The notes beneath the pieces are model-generated. The model was given only the letters and a program-made list of their open reading frames with translations, was not told where the DNA came from and did not search any database. From Verrucomicrobiota bacterium (lineage in GTDB: Bacteria; Verrucomicrobiota; Verrucomicrobiia; Opitutales; Seribacteraceae): 42,221 nucleotides of DNA. The stretch lies in assembly GCA_027622665.1 (NCBI GenBank), contig JAQBYT010000036.1:1-42221 (forward strand). Reading direction: 5' to 3'. The position numbers were made by a program, and so were the translations under genes. Each line of letters begins with the position of its first letter. Within the stretch, counting starts at the first letter, position 1. This document shows positions 2 through 40,417 of this stretch, one piece after another.

Positions 2-3000
2 GGTGGCACCACGATCGTGAATGCCGGAGGCGGTTTCAGCAACACTCCATGGGAACTCGAGCCTAGAGGCGCGGGCGGATCTTATGCGGGTCAAGGAACC
101 GGACCTGTTGCCAACGATCGCAACGTAGTCGTAGGCTCTACTTACGGTGACCGCAAATTGGAGGCCATCTTCGGGGGCGCAGGCGGTTCCGGAGCCAGTG
201 GTTGGTGGGACGGCGGACAGCAGCGCGAACGCGGTGCAGGCGCAGGCGGCGGTGGCGGTGGAGCCATCGAGCTTTCGGCAGACGGAAACGGCTCCGTGAC
301 CATCGGGACCAACGTAAAGATTCTAGCCTACGGGGGTGGCATTCCCTTGCTCGGCCACGCCAGCAACGCCATCAACGGATGGAACGGCGGCAACGGCGGC
401 GGCGGCGCGGGTGGCGCCATCCGCATCGAGGGCAATAACATAACCAACAACGGCTTCCTCTCCGTAAAGGGAGGCAAGCGCGGTCACGACTTCTACGGCG
501 GAGCAGGTGGCGGCGGTCGCATCGCTCTTATCGCCCGCAAAGCTCTCGTACCCGGTCAATACGACATCTCGGGCGGCGCCAATGCGGACGAATCCGTAAC
601 CGTGGCGGGCGACGGCACACTCTACGTAGAAGCCACCGAGGGCGGCATGGCCGTACTCGAGGCAGTCTCCGGTTCGGTGGTCATCGACACCTCGGCCGGC
701 ACCCTACTCTACAGTGGTCCGGCAGGCAGCGGTCTGGCCTTCGGCACGGTCGAGGACAAGATCATATCGTCCGGCGGCTCGGACTATTCCTACGCCGTAT
801 GCACCTTCACCTTCGACCGAATCAACTTGGCTGGCTCCGTGATCGTGCAGGTAAAGGGCATGAACTCCCTCACCTTGGCGACACGCAACCATGGAAACAT
901 CACCGTGGCCGCGGACCTTACCCTAACCGGCTCGACCGACAGTTCCGCCATAGCAGGTGGCTGGAAAGGCGGAGGAGCCGGAGGAGCGGGCGAAGGTCCC
1001 GGAGGCGGACAGCTTACTACCGGAGCCGGTGCTTCCTACGGCGGTCCCGGCACGGGCGACGCAAGCCCCGTAACTTACGGCGACTTCGACCTCAACGCCA
1101 CCGTGGGTGGTTCCGGTGGTTCCAATTCGGGCGCAGGCGGAGGAGGCTCGATCAGCTTCAAAGCGCACGGCACCGGCGACGTGACCTTCGCTTCTACCTC
1201 CAATATCGTGGCGAACGGCGGAAACGGCGACGCCATCGCCAACGGCTCGGGCTCGGGCGGTTCCATCCGCGTCGAGGGCGATACCATATCCAATGCGGGC
1301 CAACTTCAAGCCAAGGGCGGTGCCGGCAGCGGCAAAGCGGGCGGCGGCGGACGCATCGCCATACACACGACCAAGGAGGTCGTGTTCGGCGACGTCGACG
1401 CGGGCAACGGCTCCGTCGCCGTAATCGGCGACATGGGCATAAAGACTTTGGAATACACCACGGGCAAGCTCGTCTTCGACACGGGCGGCGCCTCTTGGTT
1501 CCACTATGCGGGCAAGCATGGCCAAGGCCAAATAATGGGCGGCTACAACTTCAACGGCAAAGACATCAACGCCGCCGTGTTCGAGTTCGAGAAAATCGAT
1601 ATCGGGGCCGACGTCGAAGTGGTCGTCACCGGTCCGAACGCGCTCGTCCTGAAGGAAACCAACGGTTCGGGCATCGTAATCAAGGCCCACATCCGTCACG
1701 ACTTAGCCGACTCCGGTCTATCCATCGAGTCCGACGGAATTGTCACGCTCGGTCGCGACGACGGCACGACCGCCACCTTCTCCACCAACGGAGCGGGCGG
1801 CACGCTGCAGATTCGCGGTCATGGCATAATCAACAAGGGAGCCTTCGAGGCCAAGGGAACGGGCGGACGAGTCATTCTCGCCTACGCCGCCGCCTTCGTG
1901 GGCGACGCGGGCACCATAGACGCCGGGCAAACGATCCACCTCACCTTGCCTTCGATCTTCGGTACCCTCGACGTAAACGCCACCTACCTCATCCGTACGC
2001 CAATTCCCAACGAGGAGCACATGACCGCATGGTTCCGCTTCGAGGAAGGAAGCGGCACCAAGACCTACTCCGACGTGGGAGGCTACGAAGGTGTATTTCA
2101 AGGTCTGAACGGCAACCTGCCCGAGTTCGTCGACGGCAAGTTCGGCAAGTCCATAAAGTTCACCCGACAAGAGTGGGTCTACACCGACGCCAAGCCTGCC
2201 GACATGAACGTAGACGGGAAGAAGCCCCGTACCGTATCCTTCTGGTTCTACACCTACAACGGCCAAGGCAGCGAAGCCGGCCTATACGGCTATGGCGACC
2301 AAACCTGCGACTACGGCGAAAACAACAATTGGTCGCTTCGCAACTTGGGTCGAGACAACTACAAGAGGCTTATTTCGCAGCACTGGTGCTGGGATCCGGA
2401 GACTGAAAGATGGAACGGGAATGACGACCAGTACAAGGACAAGTGGGTTCACGTAGCTCATATCTACACCGGAAGCAACGCGGATTCCAGGGTCCAGCTC
2501 TACTTCAACGGTGTCATGAGAAACAACTGGGTGCGCACTCAGATAAACACCACCCAAGACAACAGCAACCAGTGCAAGTTACAGCTTGGCCGCTGGACCA
2601 CATGGGACAACGAGCTCCGCACTATGAACGGTATGCTGGACGACTTCCGCATCTATGCCAAAGCGCTCGACGCTTCCGAGATCGGAGCCATATACAACAA
2701 TGGGGACGGCGACGGCGCCGTGCCGCCAAACAACGTATTCTCGATACAGGCAACGCAAAATGCGAATCGCTTCACGGCCGCGGGCTTGCCCGCCGGACTG
2801 TTGTTGGACGACCGCACAGGTAAGATAGCAGGCGCCACCACAGCCGTGGGTGATCACAATGTAACCATTAAGGCAGGTAACTTCCTCGGTTTCAGCGATC
2901 CACAAATCCTGACAGTCAAGGTACTTCCGATTGCTCCGACATTCTCCACCGACGCAGCCGACTTCACCTCTTCCGACGTCTTGGGCAACTCCGCCGCTCT

Positions 3001-6000
3001 TAACTTCAAGATCACCGAGGTGGGCGGCGAGGACGCCAACGTGACCGTCTACTACGACAGTTCCGACAAGGGTACCGTTGCAGGCGACTGGGGTTCCAGC
3101 GAGAACATGAGCACCTTCCAAGGAGTAGGCGACTTGAGCGCCTCGCTCACAGGCTTGTCTCTAGGCACCGCCTACCACTTGCGTGTTCAAGCCAAGAACT
3201 CCGCCGGAGAAGGCTGGACTCCCAACTCCATCACCTTCACGACCAGCGCCACTCCCCTGCCCCCGGTCGTCACGGTCTACGATGCCAACGCCACTACCTT
3301 CACCACCACGGGAGCCACCCTCATAGGTCGCCTCCGTTCTCATGACGCCACCGACGCTCCCACCGTTACCCTCTACTACGGTCTCGTAGACAAGGGTCTG
3401 ACGGATGCGGGTTGGGACGGCAACGTAGTGGTCGGCGCCGTGCAAGCGGGAGCCGATTACGCCAAGCCCGTAACCGGACTGGCAGGCGGCAAGCAGTACT
3501 ACTACCGAGCCAAGGCCGCCAACTCGGCGGGCACCTCCTATTCCTCCCTAAAAGCTACCTTCGTAACCGTCGGCACACCCGCCGTGGAGACGGCGGTCGC
3601 CTCCAACGTTACGCCAACGGAGGCCACCATAAACGCCAAGATTGTCGGCACGGGTGGGGTAACCCTCCAGCTCGAGGGCAAATGGCAGGCCAAGACGTTG
3701 GCCGGCATGGGCATCTGGTTCGACGCCTCCGCCATCGAGGGCGTAGCCGACGGCGGAGCGATCTCCAGCTGGCTCGACATATCGGGCAACGGTCGCCACA
3801 TGAACAACGTGTACGATGACCCCGTTCTCCGCACTTCCGAATCCACCCTGAACAACAAGCCGGTGGTCGACTTCAAGGACGAAAACGACCGTATGTGGAC
3901 CAGCTACAACTTCCGCGACGGAGCCGAGGTAGGCAAATGGCGAGCCGAGGGTTACACCGCCATCGGCATATCCCGCTACAGCGGCAACGTGAATTCCGGT
4001 CAAAGCGAGCGCGTGATCGCCTCCAACGGGGGCAACTGGCTCTTCGGCCACGATGGCCAGATCACCAACCGCTTCCACTTCGACGGCTGGATCGACGACG
4101 GCGACAACGTCCGCGACACCAACTGGCGCTTGTATATAGCCAAGCACCAAGGCAAGGACACCGCTGGCGATCCCGCCTGCATCATTTACGACACCGGCGA
4201 AGAACGCGCGGACAACCAGCCCGCCACCGGTTCGAACAACGATTGGTTCATGCCGCAGCAGCTCGAGTTCGGCGCCATGAACAACAACGGATCGAACTCC
4301 GTTTGCCAGATCGCCGAGTACATGATGTACTACGGTGAATTGGCGGATGGCGACCGCCAGTTGCTGGAGGGCTACTTGACGGCCAAGTATGGTCTCACCC
4401 TGCCCGACGGACACCCCTACAAGGGTGCCGGCAACCCGCTTGACAGCGAGGTGGAAATCGGGGGCGAGAACGCCACCGTGAAGCTCTACTGGGGCGACGA
4501 CAACGGGACTGCCAACGGGAACGTATGGGACAACACCGTGACCGTATCCGGAACTCATCCGCGTGGCACAGTCGGAACCGACATCACGGGCTTGACCAAT
4601 GGCGCGACCTACTACTTCCGGGCATTCGCATCCAATGGAGCGGGCGACGTCTGGGCAAGCGACACCAATAGCTTCAAGGCGACCAACACCTTGCTCAACA
4701 AGGATACCGTACCCGGCTTAGTATTCTGGGTAGCCGCCGACGACGTCGACGGAAACGGCGTGGCCGATTCCTTGGCCGACGGAGCTCTCGTTCATGAGTG
4801 GAAGGACAAGTCGGACAGCGGACTGCTGGCCAAGCAACTATCCAGCTCTTCCGCTCGTCCGAGCTACCAGACTCAAGAGTTCGGGAAGCGGGCATCCATT
4901 CGCTTCGACGGGGTGAACGACAACCTCTTCCTCGACGCCGCCGTACGCGACTCATTGGGAGGTGTGAGCACTTTCGTGGTCTCCAAGCGGATCGAGAAGC
5001 AGGACGGCGGAGCCGCTACCAGGATTCTCGGAACTTCGGAGTTCGACGTTCTTTCCGGAGTGGAAGAAGCCTTCGAAGCTAGGATCGACACCTACTCGGC
5101 TGCCGAGAACAAGATCATCAACGTAAAGATTGGTCGCGAGGACGCGACCGCCTCCGAGTACTTCTCGGGCGACGTAGCCGAGGTACTCATCTTCAACCGA
5201 GCTCTCACAACACTGGAGACGCTAATGGTGCAGGGCTATCTCGCCCACAAGTGGAGCGCCACCGACAGCCTGTTGGCCTCTCACCCGTACAAGGGAGTGG
5301 CCCCGAGCTTCGACAACAGCCCGATACTCTCGATGGTTCAGGGTGTTGACGGGTTTGACGCGCCTTCTCGCGACGGTCTGCTCGGCGAGTGGCTCTTCGA
5401 CGACGGCAACCTCAACGACACCTCGGGCAACGACTATCACGGCGCCACCAACGGCGCCGCATACGTAACCGAAACAAACTCGGGTACGGGCAAGGCCATA
5501 AACCTGAACGGCAACAAGTACGTGAACGTGGACGACGGCCAAGGCCAGACCGTATTCGGCGGCGGGACCAAGTTCAGCATCAGTGCGTGGGTGAAGGAAG
5601 AACCCGACGGCGACTGGGAACCATGGATCTCCAAGCGAGGCGAAGGTGGCAGGGGCTGGCAGTTGCGAAAGAGAGTTGCCAACGAGATTACCTTTACCAC
5701 CCACGGACCGGGAGGTGGCGACGGCAACTTTAGGAAAACGGCCACCGGTCCGGTCGTGAACGACAACGAGTGGCACCACTTGGTGGCCGTGCACGGTCAC
5801 GACGGCGGCAAGCAGCGAATCTACTTGGACGGAGCCCTCTTTCACGAGCAGACCCATAGCGGCTACATCAACGCCACCGGTTCTCAACTCGTGTTCGGCG
5901 CTCGCGACAACTCGGACAACGCCGGGAACGCCATTAACATCGGCAACCACTCCAATACCTACTTGGACGACATCCGCTACTACAACCGCGCCCTCACCGA

Positions 6001-9000
6001 GAACGAGGTGGCGGTCATGGGTGGCGCCCTCCTCAACAAGATCGAGGGCAACTTCGCGAACGCCTTCGATTATCAGGTGCAAGCCGTACGCGGCCCCGAC
6101 ACTTTCTCCGTAACGGCAGGCGCCCTGCCCGACGGACTGACCATGGATGCCGCCGGCAAGATAACGGGCAATCCGAGCAAGACGGGCGACTTCAACGCGA
6201 CGATCAAGGTATTGAATAGTTCCGGTTTCAACGAAAAGGTCTATTTCTTCCGCATTCATCGCGGTACGCAGAGCATCACCTTCACGCCCGACTTCGGGAA
6301 CAAGACCTACGGTGACGCCAACATGACGTTGAGCTCCACTAGCTCGGCAGTCGGTCGCTCACCGGTGTTCCGTAGCAGCAATTCCACCATCGCATCCATT
6401 TCGGGCAACCCCGTTCTGGTACCAACGGTGGACTCCGGCTTGATCGCCCACTTCCGCTTCGAAACCGGTTCGGGGACCACGGCCAAGAACGACTTCGGCT
6501 TGGACGGTACGCTGAACAACATGGTCGCCGCCGACTGGGTGGACGCCAAGTTCGGCAAGGGTCTCGATTTCGACGGTTCCAATGATTACGTGGAAGTGGA
6601 CAAGAGCGTAGGCGAACTCAAGAACATCACCGTTTCCTTCTGGGTGAAGCCAACTCAAATGGCTTGGGACCAAATCATCAGTAAGGTTGCCAGCGGAGGC
6701 AGCGGCAAGGGTTGGGCGTTCCGAGTGAGTAGTGCCGGTGAACTCCGCATGCGAGCAGGTAGTAGCGGCAGCACTTCAGAGGTTACGTCTCCCGTGGCCA
6801 AATACGCCCAAGGCGTGTGGACACACATGGTGGGAACTTTCGACTCGAATACACGTTACGCCAAGGTCTATGCAAACGGCACGCAAGTCGCCTCGGAAAC
6901 ACTAAGTTCCGGGCGCACTTCCTTGGAAGGCGACACCGTCCTCCGTTTCGGTGTACCGCTCAACCAGAACACCAACGACAAGTACACGGGTATTCTCGAC
7001 GACGTTCGCATCTACGACAACGTACTCGATCCCGCCGACGTGGCCTCCATATACGGCGACGGCGACGGCGACTGGGTGACCTACTACGACGGCAACAAGC
7101 TCGCCTTCAATAAGGCGGGTCAAGTCAACATCATTGCTTTCGGCGCCGCCGACGCCGACGTAGCATCGGGTGCCGCGGTATCTCGTCCGTTGATCATCGC
7201 GAAGCCTGAGATTACCATCACCGCGGACGACAAGAGTCGCAAGGTCAACGAGGCCAACCCAGCCTTCACTTACGTTGCGACTGGTTTCGTAAGCGGTGAA
7301 ACTGCCTCCGTAATCACCACCGCACCCACCCTTACACCGAAGGACGGCAGCGGGGCGACGATCGCCGATAATTCCAACGTTGCAGGCAGCTACACGATCG
7401 TACCTAGTGCGGCAGTTGCCGAGAACTACGTGTTCAAGTACGTGAACGGCGATTTTATCATCGATGCTCGTACCGCCCAGACCATTACTTGGTCGCAGGA
7501 CTTGTCGAGCGTATCATTCGGCGACACCGTGGCCTTGACCGCGACCTCCAGTTCCAACTTGCCCGTCACCTACGAGATCGAGACGGAAACGATCGCCTCG
7601 CTGGTTGTCACCCGAGATTATCACCTCGATGCCTGGTGGCGTCTGGACGAGACTACGGGTACGACCGGTTCGGACAACTCGGGGAACAGTCATCCGTTAC
7701 TTCTCGTCGGCGGACCCACTTGGAAAGTCGGCAAGTTCCGCAACGGCTTGTACTTCGACGGAATCAACGACTATGCTCAAGCCTTCTCCTACAAGGGAGT
7801 TACGGGGACGGCCAAACGCACCTACTCCTTCTGGCTGCAGACGAATACGGCCAACCGAGGCATTCTTTCCTCGGGAGCTTCATCCGGTGCCGGTTGCTTC
7901 GCCCTCACCCTCGATGGTTCGGGCAAGCTGAAGGTCGACTACGGTAACGGTTCTCTCCTCTCCACCATCGCCGTGACCGACGACGTTGGGCACCAAGTGG
8001 TGGTGACCCTGCTTAAAGAAGGCAAGGTGAACGAAACCAAGATTTGGATCGATGGAGCCGACAAGACGGGCACTGCCACCAACGGAACCAATGCGGTGAC
8101 CACAAACGCCACGCAGGATGTAATTCTGGGTAAAGTCGGTGTTTCCTATTTCAAGGGAACACTGGATGACGTCCGCGTATACGTCGGTGATCTTAAGGAG
8201 GAAACCGACAATATGGAAATCACCGCGATCTACAGCGGTGGATTCGGCGATTTCAACAAGATTCGCATCATCGGCACGGGCACGACCAAAATTACGGCCG
8301 ATCAACCAGGTGACCTCGCTTATGCACCTGCCCTCGACATCGAGAAGACGATCACGGTGTCCAAGCAGAACCAGTCGATCACCTTCACACCTATGCCGAA
8401 TAAATCCGTCGGTGACTTCGACTTCGATGCAGGCGCCACGGCCAGCTCGACTCTGCCGATCAGTTATGCCAGCTCGGATACGAACATCGCCCAAATCATA
8501 GGTCCCGACAACGATGGCGACTTCTCACCCGATCCCGGAACTCAAAAGATTCGCATTCGTGCCGCAGGTACCGTGACCATTACGGCCAGTCAAGCGGGCG
8601 ACAGCATCTACAATGCCGCCACCAACCTGCAGCAGACCTTGACGATCAACTTCTACAACCTGTTCCCGGATTCCATAACGGGCATGGAGTTCTGGTTCGA
8701 CGGTAACAACGTGAATGCCGACACCTCGGTAGACGTGATCGTAGACAATTCTGCGTTCTTCACCTGGAACGACATGTCCGGCAACACTCGCAACGCGGTG
8801 CAGGGAGATGCTGCCAAAATGGGTATTTACAAGCTAAACAGCTTGAACAGCAAAGGAACCATTCAGTTCGATGCGGCCGACACCTTGGACCTGCCCTCCA
8901 CTTCGGGCATCAAGATGGTGTTTGCGGTGATCAAGCAGGATTCGGGGCAGTCCGCCGTGACCAAGCCGTTCGGCGGTGATCTCGAGGCGACCACTTCGGG

Positions 9001-12000
9001 TGGTAAGGTCGGACTCAAGCGAACCGGTGCCGCCACCGGCATGATCGATTCAGGAATAAGCTCTCAAGCTTTCAACGTGGTAGTTTGGCAAGCAGATGCC
9101 GGATCCTACGCCCTGTACGTCAACGGTGGCGACCAAGGCCAAGGTACGGAAGCCCAAGCAATATCCGCACTCGATAAGATCGCCAACGACATGAAGGGGT
9201 CAATCGCCGAGGTCGTGGGCTACGACCGCGTATTGCCTTCGCTTGCCCGCCTGAAGATCGAGGCTTATCTCGCTCACAAGTGGGGTCTGCAAGGTTTGCT
9301 TCCGGCCGATCACAAGTACAAGAGCGATTTGCCAACCTTCGGCGGCGCTCAGGAAGTTGTCTTCCAACCACTGGGAGACAAGACGCCCGAGAGCGCTCCC
9401 TTCCAATTGTTGGCTGAGTCGAGCTCGGGACTCCCCTTGACCTTCGAAAGCAACAATACCTCTCTGGCTACCGTTTCGGGTAATACGGTGACCGTGATCG
9501 CCAAGGGCTTGGTCGGAATCAAGTCAATTCAGGCTGGCGACGGTAACTGGTGGCCTGCCGACACCACGCAGACCTTGAACATCACGGACGCTCCTCGGAA
9601 GGATCAGCACATCGTCTTCGCCGCTATTCCCGACAAGACCGTTCTCACGGCCAACTTCGACTTGAATGCGACGTCCCTCCGTAGCGACAACAATGAGACG
9701 ACCGGGTTGACCGTGGCTTTCATCAGCACGAATACCGCCGTCGCCACGGTTGCGGGCAAGACGATCACGATCAAGGGACAAGGCACCACCACTCTGCGAG
9801 CTTCGCAGGCAGGTGACAACCAGTTCAATCCCGCGTCCTTCGCGGAACAAGAACTGAAAGTCACCAAGGTTGGTCAAACCATCACCTTTGCAGCCATCCC
9901 TTCGAAGAAATTAAGTGACGGCACCTTTAGCTTGACCGCCAGTTCGGACTCGGGACTACCAATCACATTCAACAGTTCCAACTCTACCATGGCATCAGTT
10001 GCAGGTAACGTGGTGACCTTGAATGCTGGGGGTACCGTCTCCATCGCCGCAACTCAAGCGGGCGACGTGACCTATGACGCGGCATCCGCCGTAAGCCAAA
10101 CGCTGACCATTCAGGATGACTCACTACAGGAGCAAACCATCACTTGGACTCAAGATCTGTCCGGTAAACGTTTCGGAGATGCTGACATCACTCTAAATGC
10201 TACTGCAACTTCTACCGGACCGGTAACTTACGCGAGTTCAGACACTGCCGTAGCGACTATCGTAGGTGGCAATAAGTTGAGAATTACGGGGGCTGGTTCC
10301 GCGACGATTAACGCATCACAGGTCGGTGGCAGTATCGGAGGAGATGAGTGGCAAGCAGCTTCTCTTTCCAAGAGCATGACCATTGCAAAATCGACTCAGA
10401 ACATCGTCTCCGCAAACAATGGATCAAATCTCTTGAACCTAGTTATGAGTGCGGGCGACTTCGATTTTGATCCCGGAGCAAAGTCCATTGACGCAGTAAG
10501 CAGTGTGGCTACGGGTCTGCCCGTAACTTATGCGAGTTCAAATACTAGCGTAGCCTTGATTATAGGTGGCGGCAGCAAGGTTCGGATAGCAGGCCCGGGT
10601 TCAGTAACAATTACTGCATCCAGTGCTTCTACTTCTGGCTACGATGCTGCGACAGACAAGACATTTACGATAACGGTTAACGAGTACAACATGTACGCTG
10701 ACTCCGTTGCCGGATTGCTGTCTTGGTTGGATGGAACTGATGTCAACGCCGACGGACAATCCGAAACGTCATCGGACTTCACTCAAGTGGGTGGAGTCGC
10801 AAAGGTGAGTCTCTGGGGAGACCGTTCGGGTAAAGGCAATAACTTGACTCAAAGCAATACCGCCAATATGCCAATTTATTTACCAAGCCTAGGGAATGCG
10901 GTACTGAAACCGTTTGTAGCATTTGGTCCAACCTTAACTTCGACCAGTTCGACGCACCTTCTGGGCTCTTTGCCTGCGACAATAACAGGCAGTCCTTCCA
11001 TTACTGTACTGGTTGCGGCAATGTCGGGGAATGATTCCGCAAGCAAGCTGGTTCATTTCGGAGCAACTGCGGGAACAGCCGGTCAAGTAATGGGATTGGC
11101 TCAGGATAGCTCATTCAACTACAATAACGGGAAATTGGCATTCGGCGGTAATTTCATGGATGCAAAAACTGTGGGAGCTTTTCGTCGGAGTAGTCCAACC
11201 ACTCATGCCGATGGAGATTTCTTTAGAAACGGCGCGGCAGTAAGTGGAACCGTTACAAATGGATCGAATACATTGAATATTCCTTCCACTGGAAACCGAG
11301 AGATATTGGTAGGTTCAGGTCGTGGAACAAATGGAGCTCTAAACGACTTTTTCGATGGGGCGATTCTGGAAGTGATTATCTTCGACGTTGCTTTGGACGA
11401 CTGGAATATTCGCCGACTGGAAGGATACCTCGCTCACAAGTGGGGTATGCCAGGTAGTCTGCCATCCAATCATGCCTTCCGCAACCAGCCGCCAACCTTC
11501 GGTGGAACTCAAACCATCACTTTGGCATTCGAGGACTTGTCTGTTGATTCCGAGAGCGGTCTTTCTCAGATCAGCGACCTAGCCGACGCCTTCTATCCAA
11601 AAGGTTCACATGCCAGTTCGGGACTTCCACTGACTTTGACGTCTTCCAACTCGGCCATAGCTGCAATCGTAAACGGCCGAATCAATCCGGTCAGCGTAGG
11701 CACTGTCACCATTACCGCCACACAAGCGGGAGACTCTCACTTCTCTGCCGCAACTACAGTGACCAAGCAGCTAAAGGTCATCACGAAGCCACCGCAAACC
11801 ATCACCTTCACCGATCCCGGTGAATTGGGTCAAGGTTTGTCGGCAAACCTTGTGGCCACCTCGGATTCTAACCTCACCGTGACGCTTGCGATAACCGCGG
11901 GAGCGGACAAGGCGACCCTAAACGGTACGACGCTTACAGGCACTGCCCTCGGCAATGTGACGATACAGGCTACTCAAGCAGGTAACAATGATTACTTAGC

Positions 12001-13183
12001 CGCGACGCCGGTGTCTCGGACCATTGCAGTCAAGAAGGGACTTAACCTCGTCTTCGATGCCATCGGGACAATGGGCAAGAATCAAGTGATACCTCTTCGG
12101 GCCAAGGTATTCAACAAGCGCACCAATAAAGTTATGCCAGTTCCGATTACCTTCACCGTTGTGTCCGGTCCTTCCGGTACGGTCATCACCGGTGGCGACA
12201 AGATAACATGTGGAAACGCGGAGGGTGCGGTCGTAGTGAAAGCTACAACCACTGATCCCTCCGGTGCCTTCTCCGAATTCGCGATGACCTCGAAAAGCCT
12301 CTCTTTCGCGATCAACGACATGCAAGGTCAGATGATCGTGTTCAAGCAAGGTGAAAGCGGAGGGTTACGCGACCTACCCTTCTCGCGCAAACCTATCCAC
12401 ATCGGAATGATGGTAACCTCGATGGCATCGGCTACGACACCTACCAATATAGCGGTGTCTCTATCGATCGTCGGAGGAGCGAGCAATTTTGTAGAAGTTG
12501 TTGGATCAGGAGTAAACCAACGTCTTATGTTCAAAAAAGGAGCTACGCCGACAAAAGTTGGCGGAAAGATGCAGCCTATTGCTATACAGCTCAAAGCCAC
12601 CGCGGCAGGTAATGCGAACTTCAATGCAGCGGCTCCCGTAATTAAAGATCTAAATATTCTTCCTCCAGGTAAAGATGCGTTCTTTAACGATCGCATGATG
12701 GATGAGCGATATTCATCCGTACGAAACGATTTCGCCCGAAAACTCCTAGCCCGCAAGGATTTGGGCAAAATCAGTGACTTGGACGGTGACGGAGATACTG
12801 ATCTTGATGACGCAAAGGCAATGTTCGACTCCGATGAGGCCGATTCGGACGGTGACGGTAAGAGTAACTTGCTTGAGCGTGCCTTCGGGTCAGACTCTCT
12901 CGGGCCGGACACCAAACGAAATATGCCCCGCCGTATGCCTTCGAAGGCTGGCAAGCAGCGCATTAGTTTTGTGCAGTACCAAAGTGATTTCAATGAGGAA
13001 GGAATCGAATATATCGTAGAAAGAAGCACGGACCTTCGTACTTGGACAACCTCAGGAGTGTCGGTAATGGCATCGGAAACGAATGATATCGGCGGCGGTA
13101 TGGAGCGTGTCGTTTGGCAAAGCGATGCCAAGGTCGTCGATGGTTCGCGCCAGTACCTTCGCTTGAGAATCAGAACCAAGTAA
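2..13183 (+). CDS. Giant secreted/surface adhesin-like protein, 5'-truncated by the window edge. Contains Gly-rich repeats, 4 LamG-like domains, 4 'GYLAHKW' jelly-roll modules, 2 He_PIG-like Ig domains, 3 FnIII-like domains, 1 MBG domain, ~10-12 'QTITF' Ig-like repeats, acidic Ca-binding motifs and a PVC-type C-terminal domain
   Basis: Frame is open from base 2 (GGTTIV...) to TAA at 13183. LamG motifs (WFRFEE..., WVHVAHIY, G.LDD.RIY), He_PIG (GLPAGL...TGKIAG), FnIII-like (YYYRAKAANSAG), MBG (ITADDKSR...NPAFTY), repeated Q.ITF...SS.LP.T..SSN...A.Q.G, and C-terminal DSDGDG.SNLLE.AFG and YIVERSTDL..W. Confidence 0.9.
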   Translation, partial: GGTTIVNAGGGFSNTPWELEPRGAGGSYAGQGTGPVANDRNVVVGSTYGDRKLEAIFGGAGGSGASGWWDGGQQRERGAGAGGGGGGAIELSADGNGSVTIGTNVKILAYGGGIPLLGHASNAINGWNGGNGGGGAGGAIRIEGNNITNNGFLSVKGGKRGHDFYGGAGGGGRIALIARKALVPGQYDISGGANADESVTVAGDGTLYVEATEGGMAVLEAVSGSVVIDTSAGTLLYSGPAGSGLAFGTVEDKIISSGGSDYSYAVCTFTFDRINLAGSVIVQVKGMNSLTLATRNHGNITVAADLTLTGSTDSSAIAGGWKGGGAGGAGEGPGGGQLTTGAGASYGGPGTGDASPVTYGDFDLNATVGGSGGSNSGAGGGGSISFKAHGTGDVTFASTSNIVANGGNGDAIANGSGSGGSIRVEGDTISNAGQLQAKGGAGSGKAGGGGRIAIHTTKEVVFGDVDAGNGSVAVIGDMGIKTLEYTTGKLVFDTGGASWFHYAGKHGQGQIMGGYNFNGKDINAAVFEFEKIDIGADVEVVVTGPNALVLKETNGSGIVIKAHIRHDLADSGLSIESDGIVTLGRDDGTTATFSTNGAGGTLQIRGHGIINKGAFEAKGTGGRVILAYAAAFVGDAGTIDAGQTIHLTLPSIFGTLDVNATYLIRTPIPNEEHMTAWFRFEEGSGTKTYSDVGGYEGVFQGLNGNLPEFVDGKFGKSIKFTRQEWVYTDAKPADMNVDGKKPRTVSFWFYTYNGQGSEAGLYGYGDQTCDYGENNNWSLRNLGRDNYKRLISQHWCWDPETERWNGNDDQYKDKWVHVAHIYTGSNADSRVQLYFNGVMRNNWVRTQINTTQDNSNQCKLQLGRWTTWDNELRTMNGMLDDFRIYAKALDASEIGAIYNNGDGDGAVPPNNVFSIQATQNANRFTAAGLPAGLLLDDRTGKIAGATTAVGDHNVTIKAGNFLGFSDPQILTVKVLPIAPTFSTDAADFTSSDVLGNSAALNFKITEVGGEDANVTVYYDSSDKGTVAGDWGSSENMSTFQGVGDLSASLTGLSLGTAYHLRVQAKNSAGEGWTPNSITFTTSATPLPPVVTVYDANATTFTTTGATLIGRLRSHDATDAPTVTLYYGLVDKGLTDAGWDGNVVVGAVQAGADYAKPVTGLAGGKQYYYRAKAANSAGTSYSSLKATFVTVGTPAVETAVASNVTPTEATINAKIVGTGGVTLQLEGKWQAKTLAGMGIWFDASAIEGVADGGAISSWLDISGNGRHMNNVYDDPVLRTSESTLNNKPVVDFKDENDRMWTSYNFRDGAEVGKWRAEGYTAIGISRYSGNVNSGQSERVIASNGGNWLFGHDGQITNRFHFDGWIDDGDNVRDTNWRLYIAKHQGKDTAGDPACIIYDTGEERADNQPATGSNNDWFMPQQLEFGAMNNNGSNSVCQIAEYMMYYGELADGDRQLLEGYLTAKYGLTLPDGHPYKGAGNPLDSEVEIGGENATVKLYWGDDNGTANGNVWDNTVTVSGTHPRGTVGTDITGLTNGATYYFRAFASNGAGDVWASDTNSFKATNTLLNKDTVPGLVFWVAADDVDGNGVADSLADGALVHEWKDKSDSGLLAKQLSSSSARPSYQTQEFGKRASIRFDGVNDNLFLDAAVRDSLGGVSTFVVSKRIEKQDGGAATRILGTSEFDVLSGVEEAFEARIDTYSAAENKIINVKIGREDATASEYFSGDVAEVLIFNRALTTLETLMVQGYLAHKWSATDSLLASHPYKGVAPSFDNSPILSMVQGVDGFDAPSRDGLLGEWLFDDGNLNDTSGNDYHGATNGAAYVTETNSGTGKAINLNGNKYVNVDDGQGQTVFGGGTKFSISAWVKEEPDGDWEPWISKRGEGGRGWQLRKRVANEITFTTHGPGGGDGNFRKTATGPVVNDNEWHHLVAVHGHDGGKQRIYLDGALFHEQTHSGYINATGSQLVFGARDNSDNAGNAINIGNHSNTYLDDIRYYNRALTENEVAVMGGALLNKIEGNFANAFDYQVQAVRGPDTFSVTAGALPDGLTMDAAGKITGNPSKTGDFNATIKVLNSSGFNEKVYFFRIHRGTQSITFTPDFGNKTYGDANMTLSSTSSAVGRSPVFRSSNSTIASISGNPVLVPTVDSGLIAHFRFETGSGTTAKNDFGLDGTLNNMVAADWVDAKFGKGLDFDGSNDYVEVDKSVGELKNITVSFWVKPTQMAWDQIISKVASGGSGKGWAFRVSSAGELRMRAGSSGSTSEVTSPVAKYAQGVWTHMVGTFDSNTRYAKVYANGTQVASETLSSGRTSLEGDTVLRFGVPLNQNTNDKYTGILDDVRIYDNVLDPADVASIYGDGDGDWVTYYDGNKLAFNKAGQVNIIAFGAADADVASGAAVSRPLIIAKPEITITADDKSRKVNEANPAFTYVATGFVSGETASVITTAPTLTPKDGSGATIADNSNVAGSYTIVPSAAVAENYVFKYVNGDFIIDARTAQTITWSQDLSSVSFGDTVALTATSSSNLPVTYEIETETIASLVVTRDYHLDAWWRLDETTGTTGSDNSGNSHPLLLVGGPTWKVGKFRNGLYFDGINDYAQAFSYKGVTGTAKRTYSFWLQTNTANRGILSSGASSGAGCFALTLDGSGKLKVDYGNGSLLSTIAVTDDVGHQVVVTLLKEGKVNETKIWIDGADKTGTATNGTNAVTTNATQDVILGKVGVSYFKGTLDDVRVYVGDLKEETDNMEITAIYSGGFGDFNKIRIIGTGTTKITADQPGDLAYAPALDIEKTITVSKQNQSITFTPMPNKSVGDFDFDAGATASSTLPISYASSDTNIAQIIGPDNDGDFSPDPGTQKIRIRAAGTVTITASQAGDSIYNAATNLQQTLTINFYNLFPDSITGMEFWFDGNNVNADTSVDVIVDNSAFFTWNDMSGNTRNAVQGDAAKMGIYKLNSLNSKGTIQFDAADTLDLPSTSGIKMVFAVIKQDSGQSAVTKPFGGDLEATTSGGKVGLKRTGAATGMIDSGISSQAFNVVVWQADAGSYALYVNGGDQGQGTEAQAISALDKIANDMKGSIAEVVGYDRVLPSLARLKIEAYLAHKWGLQGLLPADHKYKSDLPTFGGAQEVVFQPLGDKTPESAPFQLLAESSSGLPLTFESNNTSLATVSGNTVTVIAKGLVGIKSIQAGDGNWWPADTTQTLNITDAPRKDQHIVFAAIPDKTVLTANFDLNATSLRSDNNETTGLTVAFISTNTAVATVAGKTITIKGQGTTTLRASQAGDNQFNPASFAEQELKVTKVGQTITFAAIPSKKLSDGTFSLTASSDSGLPITFNSSNSTMASVAGNVVTLNAGGTVSIAATQAGDVTYDAASAVSQTLTIQDDSLQEQTITWTQDLSGKRFGDADITLNATATSTGPVTYASSDTAVATIVGGNKLRITGAGSATINASQVGGSIGGDEWQAASLSKSMTIAKSTQNIVSANNGSNLLNLVMSAGDFDFDPGAKSIDAVSSVATGLPVTYASSNTSVALIIGGGSKVRIAGPGSVTITASSASTSGYDAATDKTFTITVNEYNMYADSVAGLLSWLDGTDVNADGQSETSSDFTQVGGVAKVSLWGDRSGKGNNLTQSNTANMPIYLPSLGNAVLKPFVAFGPTLTSTSSTHLLGSLPATITGSPSITVLVAAMSGNDSASKLVHFGATAGTAGQVMGLAQDSSFNYNNGKLAFGGNFMDAKTVGAFRRSSPTTHADGDFFRNGAAVSGTVTNGSNTLNIPSTGNREILVGSGRGTNGALNDFFDGAILEVIIFDVALDDWNIRRLEGYLAHKWGMPGSLPSNHAFRNQPPTFGGTQTITLAFEDLSVDSESGLSQISDLADAFYPKGSHASSGLPLTLTSSNSAIAAIVNGRINPVSVGTVTITATQAGDSHFSAATTVTKQLKVITKPPQTITFTDPGELGQGLSANLVATSDSNLTVTLAITAGADKATLNGTTLTGTALGNVTIQATQAGNNDYLAATPVSRTIAVKKGLNLVFDAIGTMGKNQVIPLRAKVFNKRTNKVMPVPITFTVVSGPSGTVITGGDKITCGNAEGAVVVKATTTDPSGAFSEFAMTSKSLSFAINDMQGQMIVFKQGESGGLRDLPFSRKPIHIGMMVTSMASATTPTNIAVSLSIVGGASNFVEVVGSGVNQRLMFKKGATPTKVGGKMQPIAIQLKATAAGNANFNAAAPVIKDLNILPPGKDAFFNDRMMDERYSSVRNDFARKLLARKDLGKISDLDGDGDTDLDDAKAMFDSDEADSDGDGKSNLLERAFGSDSLGPDTKRNMPRRMPSKAGKQRISFVQYQSDFNEEGIEYIVERSTDLRTWTTSGVSVMASETNDIGGGMERVVWQSDAKVVDGSRQYLRLRIRTK

Positions 13184-30581: not shown

Positions 30582-32492
30582 ATGGCTCAAGGATTACATT
30601 CCAAAATGTTTTATGTTGCCGCGATCTGTATCGTAGGCTCGCCCTCAAATACATTTGGCGCCGATACAGGCGAGGTTGGTGACTTGAGCGGGGCTCTCGG
30701 GGTCAAACTGGAAGCGGGATCACCCCAATCTCCTTTTTACAAAGTAGTTTCAGCAGGATTGAAGAGCGAGGCAGCTTTTCGAGGACAGATCGCCTCCGTA
30801 ATCGGCAACAACTTGACCTTCGATACACTCCCGGATCTTCTTGATCCTACTTATCCGGCTTTTCCATTTGTCACTGGCATGTTTGCCACGACTCGAGCAC
30901 GAGCTACAGCAGCAGTGGTTAACGGAGAAGTCACTTCCATCTCCATCGACTCCAATGGTAGCGGTTACGTCAAACCACCCGAAGTCCGTATATACCCGCC
31001 GGATTCAGGAACAGATGCCTCGGTCGATGCGATCGATGCCATTGCCGTCGCCGAAGTGAACGGATCGAAAGTCACTGTAATCACAGTCACAAACGGAGGC
31101 AAAGGCTATTCCTATACTCCTCAAGTCGAAATCGAGGGCGGTCCTCATTTCCTTCGTCTGGTAGAAGAGGGCGGTTATGAAGGTCGTTTTTTTAGGATTA
31201 TTTCAAATTCGGGAAACCAAGTAACTCTCGCGAATCCTCTCAATCTCGATCTCGGTACAATTTTTAAGCCCGATGCCCTTGTGGAAATTACGCCGGCATG
31301 GACTTTGGGTTCTCTTTTCGGTTACAGTCCTCCCCTGCTTAAACTGAAAGAGGGCAATGAAACTACAGCGGATCACGTTTATTTGGGAGAGAGTAACTCC
31401 ACAGAGTATAAAGCATTTTATCATGACGGAACAGCTTGGCGTCGGAAGGGAGCGCTTGCGGTGGATGCATCAGACTCAATCATTTATCCTGACGAAGCCT
31501 TTATCTTGGCTCATCATAATGCACCGGCTGTAGATCTCGTTTTCGAAGGCGTTGCCCTAACGGTTAACTCTTTTGCTTATCTTCCTGATTTCAACGACAC
31601 CTTTCTCATGAACAATCCGTTTGGGACTGACATGATGCTATCCGATCTCATCGCGGCAGAAAACATTACCACTGACCTTAACGACACTGATAAATGGTAT
31701 GCTCATTCATCAGACGAAGAAGCCGATAATGTGGAAATACTCCGCAATGGTGTCTGGACCACCTATTGGCACGATGGCACTAACAAAGACATAACGGAAC
31801 CCGCTCAAGCAACGGCCAATCCGGGTTCGGGAATTGCGGGATCTCTCACAAGCAAGGACATCTCGTTGGCATCGGGCTCGATTTCTATGATTACCAATCC
31901 CCATGTCGGCCAAAATATTGTCGTCACCACTCCTTTGCCTCACGGTCTGCGAAACGGATTTTCAGTGAGTATATCCGGCGTTATGGGACGCAAGACCGAT
32001 TCCTCTTTCCCAGACAAGACGCAAGTGGATGAAAACGGAACCATTTCAGGATTTGGCTCTGGTCTCATCATCAAGAGTGCGGCAAACGGGTCCTACGAAA
32101 TCACAAAAGTCACTCCCTACTCCTTCGAACTAAAGGGGAAGAGCGGAAACTCTGATTATAGGGTCGGAACCGGGAAGTGGTCAACAGGGACAGGAGGTTC
32201 AGGGTACATGTCGAACGCTTATGCACTCTTCGTTGGTGGCGGTGGTTATGGCGGCAAGGGTATTGCAACGGTTTCAGGAGGCACGGTAGTTGGAATTACC
32301 CTTACTGACGGTGGAGTCGGTTATCTATCTGCCCCGAAAATCATCATAAACTCTGGTGGATGGCGCCGAGTCGGTGCAGGCAATTCGCCGATTAATGATT
32401 CGCTTGTGCCAGCAGGTGCCGGAATTCTTCTCAAGCGGAATCATCCAAATGGTACGGTATCTCGACTAAGAATTGGAAATCCGATCAAGTAG
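30582..32492 (+). CDS. TIGR02597-like Verrucomicrobia surface protein with inserted beta-repeat modules
   Basis: Signal peptide; P.WTLGSLFG, ADHV......Y..FY.....W, IIYPDEAF and NPF..D..LSD motifs; S.GSGY..PP.V.I repeats. Confidence 0.72.
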   Translation: MAQGLHSKMFYVAAICIVGSPSNTFGADTGEVGDLSGALGVKLEAGSPQSPFYKVVSAGLKSEAAFRGQIASVIGNNLTFDTLPDLLDPTYPAFPFVTGMFATTRARATAAVVNGEVTSISIDSNGSGYVKPPEVRIYPPDSGTDASVDAIDAIAVAEVNGSKVTVITVTNGGKGYSYTPQVEIEGGPHFLRLVEEGGYEGRFFRIISNSGNQVTLANPLNLDLGTIFKPDALVEITPAWTLGSLFGYSPPLLKLKEGNETTADHVYLGESNSTEYKAFYHDGTAWRRKGALAVDASDSIIYPDEAFILAHHNAPAVDLVFEGVALTVNSFAYLPDFNDTFLMNNPFGTDMMLSDLIAAENITTDLNDTDKWYAHSSDEEADNVEILRNGVWTTYWHDGTNKDITEPAQATANPGSGIAGSLTSKDISLASGSISMITNPHVGQNIVVTTPLPHGLRNGFSVSISGVMGRKTDSSFPDKTQVDENGTISGFGSGLIIKSAANGSYEITKVTPYSFELKGKSGNSDYRVGTGKWSTGTGGSGYMSNAYALFVGGGGYGGKGIATVSGGTVVGITLTDGGVGYLSAPKIIINSGGWRRVGAGNSPINDSLVPAGAGILLKRNHPNGTVSRLRIGNPIK

Positions 32493-38323: not shown

Positions 38324-40417
38324 ATGAAAAAATCACAGCTTATTCTTTTCGGCTTAATTCTTCTACTCAACTTCGTTGGTTGCTCGGATGATCCGGCATC
38401 CCCTCCATCCACCGATCCCGTCGACGCAAACCAAACCACCAAAGGGGAAACAAACGCCACCGTATCTCCTCATCCTGAAGCGAACGGCACCGCCACCCAG
38501 GCATGGTTCGGACCTCCTCAGGGAGCTGAACTGATACTCTCTCTTCGGCCAGGGCAAATCGAAACCTCTTCAGTTGCCAAGCTAACCGACTGGATCGCTT
38601 CAGGTTTCGAAGGAAACTTCACCATCCCATCGCCCTTGCCACTCGCCCTCTTTTCGAAAGGCGAACCGGTTTACCTTTTCGTGGAAGGTGCGGAAACGAG
38701 CGTCTTGGGAGTCGCGTCAAATCCAGTCAACGAAAAGGCATCCATTCCCGGATTCACCGTCGTTAATGCACATGGTCGTCGTGCCATCGTAACGGGCGAA
38801 TCACCCGAATCGATCGTCCATGCCCAAAGTATCCTTGCGGACCAACCCTATTCCGCTTCTACCGAAAATCTCCGCTCTTTCGTCGAAAGCTTTTCATCCG
38901 CTGGATTGTATATTGCCGCGTCTGACTTCGCCGTTGATTTAGGATCCGCTCCCGGCGCTCTCTCTGCATCGGTTCGGAGCCTAAACTCCGAAACCGAACC
39001 TGTCACTCCCTCCGGAAACTTGCAATGGGAAGTCGTCCCGGGGCAGTCTGCCGCCTTCTTCGGCGCCACTGACTCCAACACTCTTCTCCAACCCTTTGCG
39101 CACTTTCTCCTCGCTCGCCTTAGCTCCGAGCACAACGCAACCGGTTCTTGGGCTTTGCGCTTCGCTCAATTACTTGATTCCGGAGGAGCGACCGGGCAAT
39201 CCTTCCCCAATCCATCCGGTGGCCATCTCTTTGCCCTCGCTCCACCTTCTGATGCAAACGCCACCATCACTCCTTTCCCCGTCCCCGCCAAGCTCAAGAG
39301 CGCCGATTCAGCCTTGCTCGTGGATTTCGCCAAACTTGGTCCTTTATTGAAATCCGGTTCCTCCTCCCTGCTCGATCGCCCCGCCTTCTCCCTCGCTTGC
39401 GAGACCGCCAAGCAACTCACGATCGGTAGCGATGCCAAGTCGCTGGATCTGAAACTCACATGGTTGGATTCCTCGGAAGACGGACTGTCTTCCTTGTTCT
39501 CTTTTCTTGAGGCTCTTTCGGTTCGGCGAACGACGAGATCTTTCTACGAAGCCATCCTAAGAAATGATGTCCCCACGGTTATGCGTATTCTGGAAACGAA
39601 AGATATTTCCTCGTTGAACTTGGCCGGGGGCATTTCCCCTCTTCATTTCTGTGCATGGCAAGGGAAGGTTGGAGTTTTGAAAGTATGCCTGGACAAAGGT
39701 TTGCAGGTGAACCGGCGCGATGATTCCAATCGCACAGCCCTACACATGGCCGCTTGGAGTGGCATGCCGGCGGCGGCTCAGCTCCTGCTTGACCGCAATG
39801 CTTCGGTCGACCTGCTCAATAACGATGGCGCCACCCCCGCGATGGAAGCCGCCCGTATTGGTAACCCGGGCACTCTCGATCTTCTCCTCGCGTCGGGCGC
39901 CGACGTGAACGCCTCCGACGCGCGAGGAAACGGTCTCGTCGAGTACGCGGCATCCGGCGGACACAAGTCTCTCGTCACCATTCTAATACGTCGTGGCGCT
40001 CCCCCGCGAAACACCTTGCACGTCGCGGCCGGAATCGGCGATCTCGCAGCCCTACGCGCCCAGTTTCCCGATAACAACTCCACCGACGCCAACACTCTCG
40101 ACGGATGGGGTGCCACACCGCTTCTATATGCAGCATCGGGTGGACAATCGGATGCCTTCGATTACCTTCTCGAAAAAGGAGCCGATCCCAGAATCAAGGA
40201 TGAACTAGGGCTCACTCTCGTTCATGCCGCGGCCATGTCCGGGCACAGCAGGATTCTAGCCAAGGCCCTAGACCTCGGCCTCGAAGTGAATGCCCGCCAC
40301 GCCGAACGTGGAGCCACCGCCTTAGACTGGGCCATCGCTCGCAAGGACGGTGTCGTTGCGGATGCGTTGCGTGCTGCTGGAGCAAAAACGGGTTGGGAAC
40401 TCGAGAGCGGTCCCTAA
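38324..40417 (+). CDS. Ankyrin-repeat lipoprotein
   Basis: Lipobox FVGC after MKKSQ signal; C-terminal G.TPL..AA..G....LL..GAD repeats (~8). Confidence 0.9.
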   Translation: MKKSQLILFGLILLLNFVGCSDDPASPPSTDPVDANQTTKGETNATVSPHPEANGTATQAWFGPPQGAELILSLRPGQIETSSVAKLTDWIASGFEGNFTIPSPLPLALFSKGEPVYLFVEGAETSVLGVASNPVNEKASIPGFTVVNAHGRRAIVTGESPESIVHAQSILADQPYSASTENLRSFVESFSSAGLYIAASDFAVDLGSAPGALSASVRSLNSETEPVTPSGNLQWEVVPGQSAAFFGATDSNTLLQPFAHFLLARLSSEHNATGSWALRFAQLLDSGGATGQSFPNPSGGHLFALAPPSDANATITPFPVPAKLKSADSALLVDFAKLGPLLKSGSSSLLDRPAFSLACETAKQLTIGSDAKSLDLKLTWLDSSEDGLSSLFSFLEALSVRRTTRSFYEAILRNDVPTVMRILETKDISSLNLAGGISPLHFCAWQGKVGVLKVCLDKGLQVNRRDDSNRTALHMAAWSGMPAAAQLLLDRNASVDLLNNDGATPAMEAARIGNPGTLDLLLASGADVNASDARGNGLVEYAASGGHKSLVTILIRRGAPPRNTLHVAAGIGDLAALRAQFPDNNSTDANTLDGWGATPLLYAASGGQSDAFDYLLEKGADPRIKDELGLTLVHAAAMSGHSRILAKALDLGLEVNARHAERGATALDWAIARKDGVVADALRAAGAKTGWELESGP

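Follow-up and report, generated by a model that had tools for sequence, protein, structure and literature searches.

A putative PglB-type N-glycosylation system and its acidic sequon signature in marine Verrucomicrobiota

This study deals with a stretch of 42,221 nucleotides of a Verrucomicrobiota genome (contig JAQBYT010000036.1 of assembly GCA_027622665.1; Opitutales, Seribacteraceae), referred to here as the window, and with a lipoprotein encoded in it that carries ten sequons of the type D/E-x-N-x-S/T. These ten motifs, an intact PglB oligosaccharyltransferase encoded elsewhere in the genome, and the co-occurrence of both features in two marine families together make it likely that envelope proteins of these bacteria are N-glycosylated. 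Judged from sequence, the lipoprotein is very probably a multi-site substrate of a general N-glycosylation carried out by an intact Campylobacter-type PglB in an active system. The proposal of the initial annotation, that this organism N-glycosylates its envelope proteins with a PglB-like enzyme, is thus supported by the intact PglB, by the excess of acidic residues at position -2 in non-cytoplasmic proteins and by the co-distribution of enzyme and signature across families.

The lipoprotein and its sequons

The features of the lipoprotein gene are as follows, all on the + strand.

38324..40417, +: 697-amino-acid (aa) lipoprotein whose N-terminal domain belongs to no known family and whose C-terminal part contains ankyrin repeats; likely acceptor for PglB through ten D/E-x-N-x-S/T sequons
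38324..38383, +: lipoprotein signal peptide MKKSQLILFGLILLLNFVG-C20, ending in the lipobox Cys20 (from sequence, heuristic call)
38423..38491, +: Pro/Thr-rich tether with three sequons, DANQT (38423-38437), ETNAT (38447-38461) and EANGT (38477-38491)
38609..38623, +: sequon EGNFT, full sequon in the same column in 5/7 aligned sequences
39128..39142, +: sequon EHNAT, full sequon in 6/7 aligned sequences
39251..39265, +: sequon DANAT, full sequon in 7/7 aligned sequences, with D/E and S/T interchanging
39662..40294, +: ankyrin-repeat region, aa 447-657 (Pfam Ank_2, E 2.6e-43)
Ankyrin-region sequons, +: DSNRT (39722-39736), DRNAS (39791-39805), DVNAS (39902-39916) and DNNST (40070-40084)

Exactly as listed in the initial annotation, 10 of the 11 non-proline N-x-S/T sites have D/E at -2, the exception PDNNS overlapping DNNST; with D and E making up 10.2% of the protein, this corresponds to a binomial p of 1.2e-9. 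If the three sites that fall within the first ankyrin repeats are excluded, 7/8 sites are still acidic (p = 8.4e-7), and relative to a composition-based expectation of 0.43 sites the protein ranks 11th among the 3016 called genes. The reported clustering of three sequons in the tether right after the lipobox was also found, at aa 36, 44 and 54, after Cys20. The four sequons cited from FabV and ComM as a cytoplasmic counterpart (YKNQT, YRNGT, TENLT and GDNRS) are present as well, and an acidic residue at -2 occurs in 0/4.

For the ortholog alignment nine loci were tried, two of which gave no usable frame. The full-length orthologs (n = 5, 46-88% identity) contain 8-11 full sequons and one partial copy contains four. 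D/E, N and S/T persist in several columns in which the X residues vary, and elsewhere sites turn over; the tether sequons are partly kept and partly turned over. The N-terminal part of the lipoprotein has matches in 8/36 genomes of the Opitutales family to which the genome belongs and in 0/24 genomes of other families. No Pfam family matched this domain, and atlas searches with it and with the gene upstream of pglB returned only Verrucomicrobiota/Lentisphaerota clusters, unnamed or ankyrin.

The PglB of the genome

The hidden Markov model search for STT3/PglB suggested in the initial annotation yielded a single STT3 match, located on contig C43 (G000:C43:2660-5929) in an open frame of 1089 codons without stops and with the WWDYG motif present. 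None of the 22 window proteins scanned matched, in agreement with the earlier statement that the window holds no STT3 gene. The protein of 1086 aa matches PF02516 (STT3, E 9.5e-20) and PF21436 (STT3-PglB_core, E 1.3e-20), both above the cut-off. Its best PDB match is the PglB of Campylobacter lari (E 5e-43); the four distinct sequences matched are all PglB, and archaeal structures were not matched by sequence in this comparison.

In ten PglBs of the family H122-D123, R218, D225-x-D227, E451, R463, R529 and W630-W631-D632 are invariant, so that the catalytic residues, like WWDYG, do not change at 51-89% identity. The stretches THD, RTLAGYYDTD, TIRE and GLRFT align with C. lari PglB, in which D56, D154, D156 and E319 are the metal-binding and catalytic acids and R375 is a further functional residue. 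Residues 308-333 of C. lari align without gaps over 26 columns, placing TIME on TIRE and R331 on R463; this is a weak local stretch when taken alone, and the equivalence of R463 and R331 is supported by an alignment of 169 sequences. R331 has been proposed to bind the Asp at -2 (PMC4894442, PMC12229607). The family enzyme also has a long C-terminal extension.

In 4 of the 16 marine metatranscriptome runs listed, contigs match parts of pglB and of the two genes upstream of it, in some pieces almost identically; these are contigs only, in small shares (0.05-0.17), whose uncovered parts and depth carry no information, and they document presence in RNA libraries and not proof of transcription.

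Sequon statistics across the proteome

Statistics were based on 3016 genes called by a self-trained model, with heuristic rules for signal peptides and membrane proteins. In a first split of the proteome, enrichment of acidic residues was found only at -2 and only for N-x-S/T; the control motifs Q/H/K/G-x-S/T, N-x-[AVG] and N-P-S/T showed none at -2 genome-wide, and non-acidic N-x-S/T occurred at 0.92-1.02 of the shuffled level. With stricter bins and proteins <700 aa, D/E stands at -2 in 191/1442 sites of cytoplasmic proteins (0.132, equal to the flanking positions), compared with 47/145 in lipoproteins, 112/686 in signal-peptide proteins and 101/481 in membrane proteins (Fisher tests against the cytoplasmic bin, p = 2e-4 and 7e-5), although these bins still misplace at least three surface-type proteins.

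The full acceptor rule of PglB is D/E-Y-N-X-S/T, in which neither X nor Y is proline. The non-cytoplasmic proteins follow both parts of it: the acidic share is 1091/4094 without proline, 15/190 with proline at -1 and 24/286 with proline at +1, whereas the cytoplasmic shares are 0.13, 0.15 and 0.12, respectively. The loss of enrichment with proline at either position, which is the sharpest test of this study, reproduces the full PglB rule. Glu alone is also enriched at -2 of the non-cytoplasmic sites (p = 1e-17), and Gly does not dominate the position after the acidic residue (58/696). An acceptor proteome with D/E-Y-N-X-S/T in exported proteins is therefore present as a statistical signature, which is a property distinct from occupancy.

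Within the lipoproteins of the genome, 18/42 sites are acidic in the first 60 residues and 31/162 later. At least five acidic sites occur in each of 39 proteins. The highest-ranking acceptors are giant proteins of the Ig/cadherin, RCC1 and LamG types with 79/117, 52/61 and 55/69 acidic sites, and in the largest proteins most sites differ from each other (77 distinct 11-mers among 79 sites). Envelope proteins among the top scorers include FKBP, ExbB/TolQ, LptA, NfeD, SecDF, YidC, YdbH and an outer-membrane efflux protein (21 hand-picked). Of the long proteins with a Trp-rich tail, 14/15 are among the top acceptors.

Two side observations concern these proteins. The Trp-rich C-terminal domain of about 90-120 aa occurs in proteins of >1000 aa (G000 C3:128-12661, C12:42319-48480, C55:395827-409200 and 12 more), had no Pfam match in the four that were scanned, has similar counterparts in PglB-less Opitutales, and is possibly a surface sorting or anchoring domain. 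The YidC (L309, G000:C55:242969-245065) carries a DnaJ-like domain at its C-terminal end (Pfam E 2.6e-6, slightly above the cut-off).

Distribution of PglB and of the signature

PglB was found in 31/36 genomes of the Opitutales family and in 0/24 other families of the order, each represented by a single genome. The named loci with this PglB are marine-type Opitutales, and Ca. Chordibacter forsetii (Ca. Seribacteraceae) falls inside the PglB clade; PMC8857213 does not name Chordibacter, and an equation of the family with "MB11C04" was set aside. Of the five family genomes in which pglB was missed, three have contigs that break off within the upstream gene and two lack the whole operon. A loss of pglB in these five is not claimed, as the pattern is compatible with assembly gaps and the upstream gene keeps 2-3 sequons; PF02397 matches are missing from the same three genomes, which may be an assembly gap too.

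The acidic signature at -2 tracks PglB across families. Codon patterns encoding D[AG]N[AG]T outnumber those for the swapped motif N[AG]D[AG]T by 980 to 287 in the family (35/36 genomes, ratio 3.4) and number 157 against 260 in the other families (6/24 genomes, ratio 0.6); these counts are frame-blind and come from related genomes, which are not independent samples. In the membrane protein encoded two genes upstream of pglB, 126/199 sites are acidic across 51 orthologs of the family, compared with 0/11 in 8 PglB-less families (8 orthologs found in 10 genomes searched), and five Trp-tail surface proteins from PglB-less genomes have 1/40. In sampled proteomes, a second genus with PglB (400 kb) shows 169/612 acidic sites in its non-cytoplasmic proteins, and two PglB-less genomes (325 and 400 kb) show 16/221 and 28/287.

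Elsewhere PglB is rare, with two weak distant matches in 400 genomes of the phylum and three in 400 genomes of the class, two of them real. The phylum matches (G134, G212) were rejected as members of this PglB clade, being distant STT3 proteins on a long branch. Both real class matches belong to another family (f112), assigned to Limisphaerales or Verrucomicrobiales by record names in the matching protein cluster, in which 21/31 genomes have PglB; among 20 other genomes it was found in one of a third family (G775). The codon-pattern ratio is 593/388 in f112 (22/31 genomes) versus 238/513 in its neighbours (1/20). The proteome sample of f112 is weaker (54/390 acidic vs 0.096 at the flanks, p = 0.005), and since the cytoplasmic bin of this sample is itself close to significance (26/171, p = 0.053), the f112 excess is not assigned to a compartment.

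A FastTree phylogeny of 93 rows was built after exclusion of rows <660 aa, of the representatives that come after P0200 and of one row of the family; it unites both families and further sequences in a 41-row group with a Shimodaira-Hasegawa-like (SH-like) support of 100. This group nests in a 50-row clade without DGxKH (SH-like 100) that holds all 14 rows of the Opitutales family and stands apart from 35 DGxKH-type rows, one of them named Epsilonproteobacteria. Because the sample is biased to the nearest matches of the query and the root is a midpoint root, no donor or direction of transfer is claimed.

Some f112 PglBs (L198:10970-18205, L191:8088-12959 and L196:8392-13200) reach 1600-2400 aa through large insertions between the STT3 and core domains, and such insertions also occur in P0140, P0145 and P0155, one with a weak Sel1 match. 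The f112 pglB of G746 (L192:9236-11938) is broken by frameshift-type stops in the assembly, reflecting error or decay. In G765 (L190:5042-12111) pglB directly follows the gene of a 1363-aa protein with 10/25 acidic sequons, and a second pglB lies on another contig.

The pglB locus and candidate glycan genes

The conserved surroundings of pglB, compared across 60 loci, comprise a membrane-protein pair, peptide deformylase, a TonB receptor and either a FecR-domain or an FG-GAP protein. The pair upstream of pglB (L002:5982-9984, G000:C43) is conserved in Verrucomicrobiota and belongs to no Pfam family; its first member, a multi-pass protein of 764 aa, shows a MotA/ExbB-like pattern at the C-terminus, and the second, of 573 aa, has a coiled coil and, at the N-terminus, a CDFLLL anchor. 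By eye the pair presumably resembles a proton-driven stator pair. It also occurs in PglB-less families, and the Opitutales family gains 2-4 sequons in the first protein and few in the second (12/215). Downstream of pglB (L002:1-2438) lies the gene of an FG-GAP repeat protein, which at the contig end shows PGSVK(F/L)PS in serial repeats; relatives carry a FecR-domain low-complexity protein in its place.

Candidate genes for the glycan donor in the genome are three PF02397 transferases, a WecA-like gene, several sugar clusters and an ATP-binding cassette (ABC) transporter with PglK as best NCBIfam match (310 bits, below the cut-off of 1000), none of them tied to PglB. The cassette on contig C13 comprises a short dehydratase, a LegC-family aminotransferase, a GNAT and a PglC-like gene. 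The one on C21 comprises, according to NCBIfam, a nucleotide-sugar dehydrogenase, a 3-dehydrogenase, an acetyltransferase and an aminotransferase, which we take to correspond to Wbp genes. As a separate observation, PseB and PseI above the NCBIfam cut-off (L109:6152-9895, G000:C40) mark a pseudaminic acid pathway that may serve flagella or a surface glycan.

In f112, pglB stands beside sugar-nucleotide, glycosyltransferase or PglK-like ABC genes in 7/10 regions by NCBIfam; an eighth has a sugar cluster by look-alike N-termini only, and the ten include G775 of the third family. In the latter (L195:2593-7692), pglB is oriented tail to tail to a gene group with PglC-like and PglF-like members, a GT4 and an amidotransferase. 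Some sugar clusters of our genome and those beside f112 pglB share 57-75% identity in five sugar-nucleotide enzymes and 35-37% in the PglK-like ABC protein.

Evidence against the interpretation and alternative explanations

Several observations weigh against PglB-dependent glycosylation as proposed here. The initial annotation had suggested comparing D/E at -2 between exported and cytoplasmic proteins, and in the first split there was no difference (472/2118 vs 660/3004, or 0.223 vs 0.220; p = 0.81), because the cytoplasmic bin had taken in giant proteins that were truncated at contig ends or had their starts called too late. The suggested contrast thus failed in this form and held with the stricter bins, where the excess is confined to non-cytoplasmic proteins; these bins and the 700-aa cut were chosen after the first split, and the gene, signal-peptide and membrane calls are heuristic. 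At 700-1500 aa the exported and "cytoplasmic" bins are equal (0.183 each), long lipoproteins have 2/58 acidic sites, and short signal-peptide proteins are not raised for at least one site (68 vs 75 shuffled) and are enriched only for at least two (20 vs 8.3), so that the signal sits in a subset of proteins. Two PglB-bearing genomes outside the Opitutales family show no D[AG]N[AG]T excess (G748, 4 vs 11; G775, 6 vs 14).

On the side of the enzyme, the DGGK motif that follows WWDYG is replaced by TSPAH in the family, a Cys-rich insert lies directly after R463, and the NCBIfam PglB equivalog NF050801 scores 196.6 bits, far under its cut-off of 1300. The Arg is no guarantee of strictness, since the PglB of Desulfovibrio gigas keeps it and is yet relaxed (PMC4894442). 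Neither glycan genes nor a Campylobacter-style pgl locus flank pglB in the Opitutales family. The diNAcBac-like cassette C13 and the WbpABDE-like cassette C21 were rejected as the family glycan, as they occur in only 3/36 and 7/36 relatives, respectively. The enzyme is a GT66/PglB member with a presumably Pgl-like mode of working, yet it departs from the known type in DGGK, in the equivalog score and in its locus.

The sequons could be modified without a short fixed pgl-type glycan, either with O-antigen- or capsule-like polymer units from variable loci transferred by PglB or by another enzyme such as an HMW1C-type cytoplasmic N-glycosyltransferase, which we regard as very improbable. A variable donor is suggested by the sugar clusters C13 and C21, which are patchy across the family and resemble those beside f112 pglB; such a strain-variable donor would be compatible with glycosylation by PglB as we propose it and differs only in the glycan. 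A different enzyme is opposed by the acidic residue at -2 and the double proline rule, which are features of PglB, and by the absence of the excess from cytoplasmic proteins. A search with HMW1C_N gave no match in the genome, but none in any control genome either, and so carries no information.

It is very improbable that the system is a relic, with sequons that go back to selection in an ancestor and a PglB that has fallen silent or serves only a few sites. The fact that no conserved glycan locus was found, RNA evidence that consists of contigs only and may include DNA, and the broken pglB of G746 would fit this explanation; the invariance of the catalytic residues over the identity range given above, the presence of PglB in most genomes of the family, and sequons that are kept or turned over among orthologs while the X positions change argue against it.

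A structural or compositional origin of the motif (Asx turns, Ca-binding D-x-N loops or the ankyrin D-x-N-A consensus), with PglB incidental, is very improbable. In its favour, three lipoprotein sites coincide with the D-x-N that recurs in ankyrin repeats, D/E-x-N also stands at this place in two further ankyrin lipoproteins encoded by the genome (DVNVR, EVNVK, DINAR, DVNAK), and D, N, S and T abound in the giant Ig-type proteins. Against it, the repeats of the other ankyrin lipoproteins mostly lack S/T at +2, the 7/8 sites outside the ankyrin consensus remain significant (p = 8e-7), shuffling preserves composition, Glu is enriched at -2, proline on either side abolishes the signal, Gly is not dominant, the same protein classes in PglB-less relatives lack the signature, and the sites in the largest proteins are not repeats.

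Proposed mechanism and significance

In the glycosylation by PglB that we favour, a glycan would be assembled on the inner face of the inner membrane, with polyprenyl diphosphate as carrier, and an ABC or Wzx-type flippase would bring it across. PglB would then move it en bloc, in the periplasm, to the Asn of D/E-Y-N-X-S/T (X, Y not Pro), with Arg463 (R331 in C. lari) binding the acidic residue at -2 and WWD the Ser/Thr at +2. Selection would have loaded such sites into the flexible tethers of lipoproteins and the periplasmic domains of FKBP, ExbB/TolQ, LptA, SecDF, YidC and NfeD, and put tens of them into the giant Ig/RCC1/LamG surface proteins. More tentatively, and with some doubt on our part, the DGGK-less PglB clade of the two distant marine families may build a dense surface glycan shield with strain-variable, O-antigen-like sugars at fixed sites. 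The giant Ig/RCC1/LamG proteins with their Trp-rich C-terminal domain would then each bear N-glycans by the tens, at up to 79 sites, a glycan load like that of archaea or eukaryotes that follows a Campylobacter-like rule.

The literature searched, which covered few subscription papers and no supplements (where PglB trees may be found), contained no report of N-glycosylation by PglB or another oligosaccharyltransferase in Verrucomicrobiota or Opitutales. Published accounts place bacterial lipid-linked N-glycosylation mostly in epsilon- and delta-proteobacteria and, besides, in Aquificae (PMC4973528, PMC4894442). If confirmed, such a system throughout a family of marine Verrucomicrobiota would add the Planctomycetes-Verrucomicrobia-Chlamydiae (PVC) superphylum and planktonic bacteria to this range. 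About 600 selected sites are predicted in one genome, by our own arithmetic from the counts of the proline test, and are directly testable in marine metaproteomes; many envelope peptides of these bacteria would then be missed in standard searches. The divergent clade also offers single-subunit oligosaccharyltransferases for glycoengineering screens, and the acceptor rule proves readable from sequence statistics in uncultured bacteria.

Other proteins in the window

Two further proteins of the window are candidate acceptors.

30582..32492, +: 636-aa predicted exported protein of no Pfam family, second likely acceptor, with D/E at -2 in 7/12 N-x-S/T sites
17..13183, +: giant surface protein (LamG, FN3 and MBG domains), weaker likely acceptor, which may be cut at the contig start

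In the giant protein 14/51 sites have D/E at -2, 14 being observed and 4.7 expected. On the - strand, the window contains at 32749-37007 the genes of a 940-aa membrane/coiled-coil protein and a 479-aa predicted lipoprotein, which overlap by four bases and belong to no Pfam family; a leucine-rich repeat protein follows this pair at 37123-38100.

Comparison with known systems

The closest known system is the Pgl system of Campylobacter jejuni and C. lari (PglB, GT66; PDB 3RCE, 5OGL, 6GXC), with which the system described here shares a single-subunit enzyme of the STT3 family. Like C. lari PglB, the enzyme has D56-, R147/D154/D156-, TIxE/E319-, R331-, R375- and WWDYG-equivalent motifs. The acceptor rule D/E-Y-N-X-S/T with exclusion of proline is also the same, here in a statistical sense, and the acceptors are likewise periplasmic and membrane proteins and lipoproteins. 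Unlike the Campylobacter enzymes of about 712-724 aa, the PglB of this other phylum has 1086 aa, a Cys-rich insert, a long C-terminal extension and TSPAH for DGGK; its gene lies in an operon with the Verrucomicrobiota-specific membrane-protein pair and not in a pgl locus, and giant surface proteins carry 26-79 sites each.

In the PglB1 system of Helicobacter pullorum, the pgl genes are scattered over five loci and Wbp-type uronic-acid sugars occur in the N-glycan (PMC6025236). H. pullorum is a precedent for both features; unlike there, no pglA/H/J-type set is assignable here, and only one pglB was found. The PglBs of Desulfovibrio (D. gigas, D. marinus) are non-Campylobacterota enzymes with deviant motifs that are relaxed at -2 (PMC4894442, PMC12229607). 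In contrast, only the acidic sequon is enriched here, and the tree contained no named Desulfovibrio sequence. In archaeal S-layer glycosylation by AglB, dense N-glycan sites are found on large surface proteins, and a similar density on large surface proteins is predicted for the present system. AglB itself needs no acidic residue at -2 (PMC12229607).

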